From the NCBI RefSeq assembly GCF_046105845.1, contig NZ_CP151004.1: a DNA stretch of 64,000 nt. The stretch is one strand, 5' to 3'. The stretch is from Escherichia coli (GTDB lineage Bacteria; Pseudomonadota; Gammaproteobacteria; Enterobacterales; Enterobacteriaceae). The position numbers and the translations under genes are program-made. Under the pieces are notes generated by a model. It saw nothing but the letters and a program-made list of their open reading frames with translations. It was not told the origin of the DNA and made no database searches. This document shows positions 53,141 to 53,604 of the stretch, piece after piece (position 1 is the stretch's first letter; the number at the start of each line of letters is the position of its first letter).

Positions 53141-53314
53141 TTAAAACAGTGAAAACAACAGCGCCACCGGGAAACTCATCGGCCATGTTGCCCCCACCAG
53201 AAAGGCGCTTAAGAAACGGATGCGTTTCTTATCGTGAGAAAGAAACCAGGTGATAAGAAATGCGATTGCTGCCATAACCGCATAAAAAACAAGCATGTGT
53301 TGATAGAGAGACAT
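53141..53314 (-). CDS. ortT: Orphan membrane toxin OrtT (YdcX), 57 aa
   Basis: Track ORF 53141..53389; start at internal Met MSLYQHMLVFYAVMAAIAFLITWFLSHDKKRIRFLSAFLVGATWPMSFPVALLFSLF. Confidence 0.85.
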   Translation of the reverse strand: MSLYQHMLVFYAVMAAIAFLITWFLSHDKKRIRFLSAFLVGATWPMSFPVALLFSLF

Positions 53315-53508
53315 GTACGGGCGTCCAGCCAGATGAATAAAACGCGCGCAAATATGCGTCATTTTTTGACGTGCATCAAGTTTTTTCACCAGTTTGAGAA
53401 AAAATCATCAAACAGCAACTTGCCCTTATCCATCTTCAGAATGAGTATTATTGCGGATTTTCTTAACCCGTACTATACACATAGGGGCAATGATAAAAGG
53501 TGGCAAAA

Positions 53509-53604
53509 ATGAATGTTTCCAGTAGAACTGTAGTACTGATAAATGTCTTTGCTGCTGTTGGTTTGTTTACTCTTATCTCTATGAGATTTGGCTGGTTTAT
53601 TTGA
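53509..53604 (+). CDS. yncL: Small membrane protein YncL, 31 aa
   Basis: Short ORF read from sequence (MNVSSRTVVLINVFAAVGLFTLISMRFGWFI) with AAAAGGTGG RBS; below ORF-track length cutoff. Confidence 0.75.
   Translation: MNVSSRTVVLINVFAAVGLFTLISMRFGWFI

Follow-up and report, generated by a model that had tools for sequence, protein, structure and literature searches.

The window analysed is a 64-kb stretch of Escherichia coli DNA, and positions 53141-53604 within it hold two very short genes. On the minus strand ortT (also called ydcX) occupies 53141-53314, with its ATG at 53314 and its stop codon at 53141-53143, and encodes 57 residues plus stop: MSLYQHMLVFYAVMAAIAFLITWFLSHDKKRIRFLSAFLVGATWPMSFPVALLFSLF. 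On the plus strand yncL occupies 53509-53604, begins with ATG and encodes 31 residues plus stop: MNVSSRTVVLINVFAAVGLFTLISMRFGWFI. Both assignments come from the ORF listing and its translations, in which each gene is nested in a longer GTG-started frame, of 34 residues for yncL and of 82 residues (53141-53389, minus strand) for ortT. The 194-bp spacer between the genes (53315-53508), within which both predicted promoters lie, is identical to that of strain K-12. The neighbours are ydcZ (52372-52821, plus strand; DMT_YdcZ) and ydcY (52822-53055, minus strand; DUF2526) on the ortT side and patD (53701-55125, minus strand) on the yncL side. A first-pass annotation had set the pair at exactly these outer ends and called it divergent and back-to-back; divergence holds, and back-to-back is loose, as the 5' ends face each other head-to-head across the 194 bp rather than lying tail-to-tail. 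Its remark that such small membrane peptides are missed by length-filtered ORF calling holds for a 60-residue filter.

The identities given to the two genes in that annotation proved right by several routes. OrtT scores 96.9 bits against Pfam PF10753 (Toxin_GhoT_OrtT; cut-off 22.1), residues 4-57 aligning to profile positions 1-55 of 55, and YncL scores 72.5 bits against the NCBIfam equivalog NF000537 (cut-off 35), residues 1-30 aligning to positions 1-30 of 30. The K-12 MG1655 counterparts are b1445 (ortT) and b4598 (yncL). Alignment to K-12 shows a single base difference over 53141-53604, which lies in yncL codon 13; the ortT coding sequence and the whole of its upstream spacer are nucleotide-identical, and the K-12 ortT neighbourhood contains the same yncL, patD, ydcY and ydcZ. 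The window thus derives from a non-K-12 strain having an unchanged ortT and a yncL one codon off. The best matches to the 1.4-kb region around the pair, in many E. coli chromosomes, are 99.6% identical, and the RefSeq record of one such strain has, at positions equivalent base for base to 53141-53314 and 53509-53604, the features 'orphan toxin OrtT' and 'stress response membrane protein YncL'. The locus is therefore OrtT and YncL themselves, not relatives of them. Since RefSeq already annotates both and both have been the subject of experiments, the observation is correct but ordinary. It does show that a reader given sequence only can correctly recognise genes of fewer than 60 codons. With high confidence we take the locus to be the chromosomal E. 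coli ortT-yncL pair, two independently and divergently transcribed genes for small membrane proteins.

The Kyte-Doolittle profile of OrtT (GRAVY 1.11) has two hydrophobic stretches on either side of a basic loop, HDKKRIR, in agreement with the transmembrane segments 6-26 and 34-54 given by Islam, Benedik and Wood in 2015, who named the protein 'orphan toxin related to tetrahydrofolate' (PMC4344625). Profile match, length and topology, and orthology with the characterised OrtT all place the protein in the GhoT/OrtT family. Its description as GhoT-like is likewise accurate: GhoT, the toxin of the type V GhoT/GhoS system (b4559/b4128), also has 57 residues, belongs to PF10753, is 63% identical in K-12 and has the same C-terminal motif, TWPMS-PVALLFSLF. 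The two proteins are reported to act in the same way, by membrane damage, but GhoS fails to neutralise OrtT and the stress specificities of GhoT and OrtT differ (PMC4344625). They differ also in setting, as ghoT lies directly downstream of ghoS in an operon (ghoS is 27 bp upstream), whereas ortT has no ghoS-like gene nearby. Like the type I toxins (Hok, Ldr, Ibs, TisB, ShoB), OrtT is a short hydrophobic peptide of the inner membrane whose over-production dissipates the membrane potential. It differs from them in having two helices rather than one and in being encoded by a core, syntenic, single-copy gene that is neither repeated nor mobile and has no detectable or conserved antisense RNA partner.

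Published work on OrtT establishes that it is toxic as a protein, since a mutant in which ATG was changed to ACG was harmless, and that an excess causes lysis, membrane damage visible by TEM and a 27-fold fall in ATP (PMC4344625). These toxicity data come from plasmid over-expression; in the same study a strain lacking ortT grew better with trimethoprim (PMC4344625). The change used for detoxifying both GhoT and OrtT is F38R. Residue 38 (53201-53203 in the window) is variable among aligned orthologues, being F, V, A or I, and the effect of F38R probably reflects the charge placed in helix 2 rather than loss of a specific Phe contact.

The 82-residue GTG-started frame (53141-53389) was considered as the real ortT product and rejected. 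The extension holds the conserved promoter and FNR box described below, indels seen there between genera have lengths not divisible by three, and toxicity is lost upon mutation of the internal ATG (PMC4344625). Public databases hold OrtT calls of 63-97 residues; because their extensions traverse the conserved promoter, these are almost certainly mis-annotated starts.

YncL is a single-helix small membrane protein of 31 residues (GRAVY 1.39). Its family assignment rests on the equivalog match and on a coding frame that has its own Shine-Dalgarno sequence, AAGGTGG (53497-53503), which is 5 nt before the ATG and is kept upstream of yncL in 15 loci. Codon 13 (53545-53547) is GTC (Val) here versus TTC (Phe) in K-12, hence F13V, and the Val variant is annotated in other E. 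coli strains. In other genera F, V, L and I all occur at residue 13, which marks it as a site in the transmembrane helix where substitution is tolerated. Apart from this Val for Phe relative to b4598, YncL of the window agrees with b4598 and with the Salmonella gene STM14_1932 (the 'sRNA' STnc1110): the match to NF000537 is full-length, and the position between patD and ortT, the Shine-Dalgarno sequence and the ATG are the same. The Salmonella gene has been studied with a translational lacZ fusion and its expression is sigma-S-dependent (PMC5437024). Tagged YncL was detected by Hemm et al. in 2008 and 2010, as cited in PMC12542507. YncL alone depolarises the membrane, condenses the nucleoid, lowers viability and sensitises cells to pore-forming peptides (PMC12542507), and its cleavage in vivo depends on RseP (PMC10470546).

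Both genes are well conserved. Of 5426 complete E. coli genomes, 5405 match the 464-bp ortT-yncL segment over 80% or more of its length, 10 match it at lower coverage and 11 have no match. The segment matches at 5424 places in E. coli assemblies, six of them in records labelled as plasmids, and a Pantoea homologue of ortT has been reported to be plasmid-borne and relevant to fitness (PMC11467524). E. coli MSB1_4I carries a rare natural ortT knockout (L084, 2156-2986), in which the 5' half of the gene and most of the spacer have given way to IS1A while yncL is intact. For comparison across species we used 80 species-representative loci selected with the OrtT/GhoT alignment, from Escherichia, Citrobacter, Salmonella, Enterobacter, Kosakonia, Lelliottia, Leclercia, Phytobacter, Pantoea and other genera. 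An intact OrtT-type gene of 75-96% identity is found in all 80. Relative to the window the median dN/dS of ortT is 0.066 (81 distinct coding sequences), with 38, 22 and 53 variable columns at codon positions 1, 2 and 3, and that of yncL is 0.117 (24 coding sequences), with 9, 6 and 27. These low ratios and the codon-position pattern indicate that both genes are protein-coding and under strong purifying selection. The position of ortT downstream of patD is syntenic in many genera. On the other side ydcY and ydcZ adjoin ortT only in the Escherichia loci among the 80, and Salmonella and Enterobacter have there instead, distal to ortT, a convergent ORF of about 715-725 residues. As the flanks differ between genera, ortT with its promoter is the only constant unit.

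An alignment of the spacer from 11 taxa has two conserved blocks, one beside each gene, separated by an unconserved middle. On the minus strand the ortT-side block reads AAAAC-TTGATGCACGTCAA-AAAATGAC-GCATATTTGCGCGCG. Its first major element, TTGATGCACGTCAA (53366-53379, minus strand), is a palindrome with one mismatch to the FNR consensus, TTGAT-N4-ATCAA, and is centred 58 nt upstream of the ortT ATG. The second, GCATATTTGCGCGCG (53343-53357, minus strand), consists of invariant or nearly invariant columns, both in this alignment and in the upstream regions of the 80 loci, and contains a candidate -10 element, CATATT (53356 to 53351), followed by a GC-rich stretch. A candidate -35 element, TTGATG (53379 to 53374, minus strand), overlaps the left half of the FNR box and is separated from CATATT by 17 nt; we infer TTGATG-17-CATATT to be the likely ortT core promoter. 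The FNR box is centred 54-60 nt upstream of the ortT ATG in 79 of the 80 loci, those of genera that lack yncL included, and has no mismatch in 38 loci, one in 28 and two in 13. Of 2000 random windows of 150 nt taken from these loci, only 27 contain a box with at most one mismatch. Within our 64-kb window one-mismatch boxes are no commoner than chance (4 found versus 2.9 expected), so the case for the box rests on its conservation across species and on published ChIP: Grainger et al. list the same 24-mer, under 'ydcX', among the FNR targets found by ChIP-chip in anaerobic K-12 (PMC1802558). The GCATATT(T)GCGCGCG block beside the palindrome is also fixed in position upstream of ortT in 79 of the 80 loci.

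The predicted core promoter would start ortT transcription near 53344. This puts the centre of the FNR box near -29, where FNR should occlude RNA polymerase, and hence repression is the preferred mode. NO inactivates FNR. In an anaerobic, nitrate-grown and NO-generating CFT073 hmp nrfA norVW strain ydcX was 11.85-fold higher (PMC5320621), a rise consistent with FNR repression that NarL/NarP or NsrR could equally explain. The ydcX entry in Table 2 of Grainger et al. is 'No' for FNR regulation in the transcriptome study cited there (PMC1802558), and the OrtT paper does not discuss the FNR site (PMC4344625). On balance we lean slightly towards FNR acting as a repressor of ortT, given the placement of the box within the predicted promoter. 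FNR may instead act as a class II activator from a weaker downstream TTTTAT element, and CTTGAT...CGCATAT may also be read as a sigma-32 promoter. A sigma-E reading of the spacer (AACTT...TCAAA) was discarded, as its elements are only 8 nt apart and the FNR palindrome explains the motif better. A GC-rich stretch after the -10 element usually goes with negative, not positive, stringent control, and its presence after the candidate ortT -10 sits awkwardly with the induction reported upon SHX treatment. That induction is a noisy 89 +/- 80-fold; mupirocin, trimethoprim and heat are also reported inducers of ortT, and predicted sigma-E and sigma-H promoters are cited in the same paper (PMC4344625).

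Taken with the literature these features fit a simple scheme, in which the present analysis supplies the identities, the coding status, the lack of an adjacent antitoxin-like element (see below), the FNR box conservation and the limited range of the pairing, whereas toxicity, membrane effects, inducing conditions and binding of FNR and RpoS come from published work on identical or near-identical proteins. OrtT would be a hairpin of 57 residues, two hydrophobic helices joined by the basic loop, and in excess would damage the inner membrane, collapsing ATP and the proton-motive force so that growth stops. As OrtT has no antitoxin, its activity would be set by the amount of transcription, presumably from the promoter with the FNR site over its -35 region and with stringent-response and heat induction as reported. 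YncL would be made separately, from a sigma-S-dependent promoter in stationary phase or under stress, would depolarise the membrane mildly and would be cleaved in an RseP-dependent manner in vivo. For workers on small membrane proteins and orphan toxins two results are of modest use. One is the clade-specific adjacency of yncL, discussed below; the other is that ortT and its FNR-site promoter form a deeply conserved unit across Enterobacteriaceae, which points to oxygen- or NO-linked transcriptional control as what restrains a toxin lacking an antitoxin. That repression responsive to oxygen or NO through the conserved FNR box serves across Enterobacteriaceae as a functional substitute for an antitoxin is a proposal we regard as evenly balanced; it is more probable, and less novel, than the possibility considered below that YncL is the antitoxin. 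Four additions of this work leave the overall picture unchanged: the FNR box and promoter are conserved between genera, yncL adjoins ortT in a restricted range of them, a hairpin covaries, and residue 38 is variable.

The most serious alternative is that OrtT is not a toxin in the toxin-antitoxin sense but a vertically inherited housekeeping membrane protein having a role linked to aerobic growth or NO, its toxicity being an artefact of over-expression. In favour of this, ortT is a core gene in E. coli, keeps its syntenic place downstream of patD in many genera, has a dN/dS of 0.066, retains its regulator site in 79 of 80 species and has neither an antitoxin nor a mobile-element context. Moreover, many small membrane proteins are toxic if made in excess, YncL and YohP among them (PMC12542507), and F38, the residue mutated to abolish toxicity, is variable among orthologues. 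Yet the improved growth of the strain lacking ortT with trimethoprim is in the direction expected of a growth brake (PMC4344625), the paralogue GhoT is a bona fide toxin of a toxin-antitoxin system, and the Pantoea homologue is carried on a plasmid (PMC11467524). We therefore hold the housekeeping explanation to be possible but doubtful; it differs from the toxin explanation mainly in label, not in biochemistry.

One candidate for a partner of OrtT is YncL. Its gene stands divergently upstream of ortT in 26 of the 80 loci, which belong to Escherichia, Citrobacter, Salmonella, Intestinirhabdus and one further enterobacterium; the spacer there measures 183-197 bp. An HMM search of six-frame ORFs found no YncL-like ORF within 4 kb of ortT in the other 54 loci, and no consistent substitute small hydrophobic ORF lies upstream of ortT in the 43 of these 54 that were scanned. 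The idea that, where yncL is absent beside ortT, some diverged or analogous small ORF takes its place upstream was discarded, as neither the six-frame HMM search nor the hydrophobic-ORF scan gave a consistent candidate. In some Enterobacter loci (L058, L059) patD ends about 180 bp from ortT and the gap is empty. In Enterobacter hormaechei (L040, 2864-3757) three unrelated small minus-strand ORFs fill the patD-ortT gap in the place of yncL; two of the three are paralogues of about 110-120 residues that share the motif ...IPE/QxxxHTRSTPFWNKE....

Since ortT is found in many more loci than those in which yncL adjoins it, OrtT does not depend on YncL as a partner. The loci with no adjacent yncL, together with the membrane effects of YncL itself, lead us to take the adjacency for a clade-specific insertion and not for a toxin-antitoxin module. 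YncL could still be the missing partner of OrtT as a small membrane 'antitoxin' that modulates the insertion or oligomerisation of OrtT. In favour of this, a near-constant spacing of 183-197 bp is kept in 26 loci of at least four genera, both genes are reported to be induced by stress or heat (PMC12542507, PMC4344625), and the related protein YohP interferes with oligomerisation of a pore-forming peptide (PMC12542507). In addition the 'UTR' construct of Islam et al., 217 bp upstream of ortT, included only about 23 bp of yncL (PMC4344625), so the published search for an antitoxin included no direct co-expression of YncL and OrtT. Set against this, 54 of the 80 loci have ortT and its conserved promoter with no adjacent yncL, the two promoters are separate conserved blocks with an unconserved middle, YncL alone does not protect but depolarises the membrane and lowers viability (PMC12542507), and a screen of a 3x genomic library gave no rescuer (PMC4344625). 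We consider it very unlikely that YncL is, in the Escherichia, Salmonella and Citrobacter clade, a protein-level 'antitoxin' of a new kind, as would follow if the partnership were real. The preferred reading, that ortT and yncL are neighbours rather than a functional module, is by our inference highly probable.

The first-pass annotation had also noted that ortT lacks a cognate antitoxin gene and had proposed a search for an antisense RNA or small ORF overlapping it. The first statement is supported by our data and agrees with Islam et al. (PMC4344625), and the search, by Rfam, promoter scan and reading frames across the 80 loci, gave no candidate. A tblastn search with K-12 GhoS found no homologue in the 64-kb window and none up to 4 kb from ortT in the 80 species-representative loci, and the neighbour YdcY is a DUF2526 protein. 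Lacking GhoS, the ortT locus falls outside the type V definition. An Rfam scan of 52300-54300 found no family, the sole match being STnc320 in the spacer at chance level (16.4 bits versus a gathering score of 50; E = 8.2). A consensus scan found no plus-strand promoter-like site able to drive an antisense transcript in or just downstream of ortT (53056-53320), and no canonical terminator was seen after ortT in a simple promoter and terminator scan, which did find a likely ydcY promoter, TTGACG-16-TATCAT, at 53125-53098. No overlapping frame in ortT, sense or antisense, stays open across the 80 loci. In these loci 53 of the 57 third codon positions of ortT vary, most with three or four different bases; the synonymous sites are thus unconstrained, which argues against a conserved overlapping RNA or ORF. 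This evidence, which is computational, gives no sign at ortT of a cis antisense or overlapping sRNA of the type I kind, and a plasmid test of its flanks was negative (PMC4344625). No antitoxin-like element was thus found adjacent to ortT. In experiments neither YdcY nor GhoS, nor the flanking intergenic DNA, nor any library clone neutralised OrtT, and the intergenic distances are far shorter than at known type I loci (PMC4344625). That ortT is nonetheless a type I-like toxin controlled by an undiscovered cis-antisense or nearby small RNA is most improbable: the Salmonella yncL transcript was first catalogued as the sRNA STnc1110 (PMC5437024) and the spacer has the weak STnc320 match, but that match is at chance level, 53056-53320 has no plus-strand promoter-like site, the third positions of ortT vary at 53 of 57 codons, flanking DNA in cis on the plasmid left toxicity unreduced, and the intergenic distances are much below those of known type I loci (PMC4344625).

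On the other side of the spacer the yncL-side conserved block contains a candidate yncL promoter, TTGCGG (53451-53456), 17 nt and TATACA (53474-53479), all on the plus strand; the hexamers are predicted from the alignment, in which ACTATA at 53472-53477 is invariant, and would place the start of yncL transcription near 53486. A genomic SELEX peak of the RpoS holoenzyme lies in the yncL/ydcX spacer (PMC5493296). Downstream of yncL, in its convergent spacer with patD, is a hairpin of a perfect 13-bp stem and a 9-nt loop (53627-53661, plus strand; RNA fold z = -2.7). The stem is kept in Escherichia, Citrobacter and Salmonella, with compensatory changes on both sides at 5 of 11 pairs. There is no clear U-run on either strand in E. 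coli, and in Salmonella the hairpin is followed by a T-run. From its place and covariation the hairpin is probably the 3'-end hairpin or terminator of the yncL transcript. patD-yncL is listed among pairs with overlapping transcripts, termed 'excludons' (PMC12288877).
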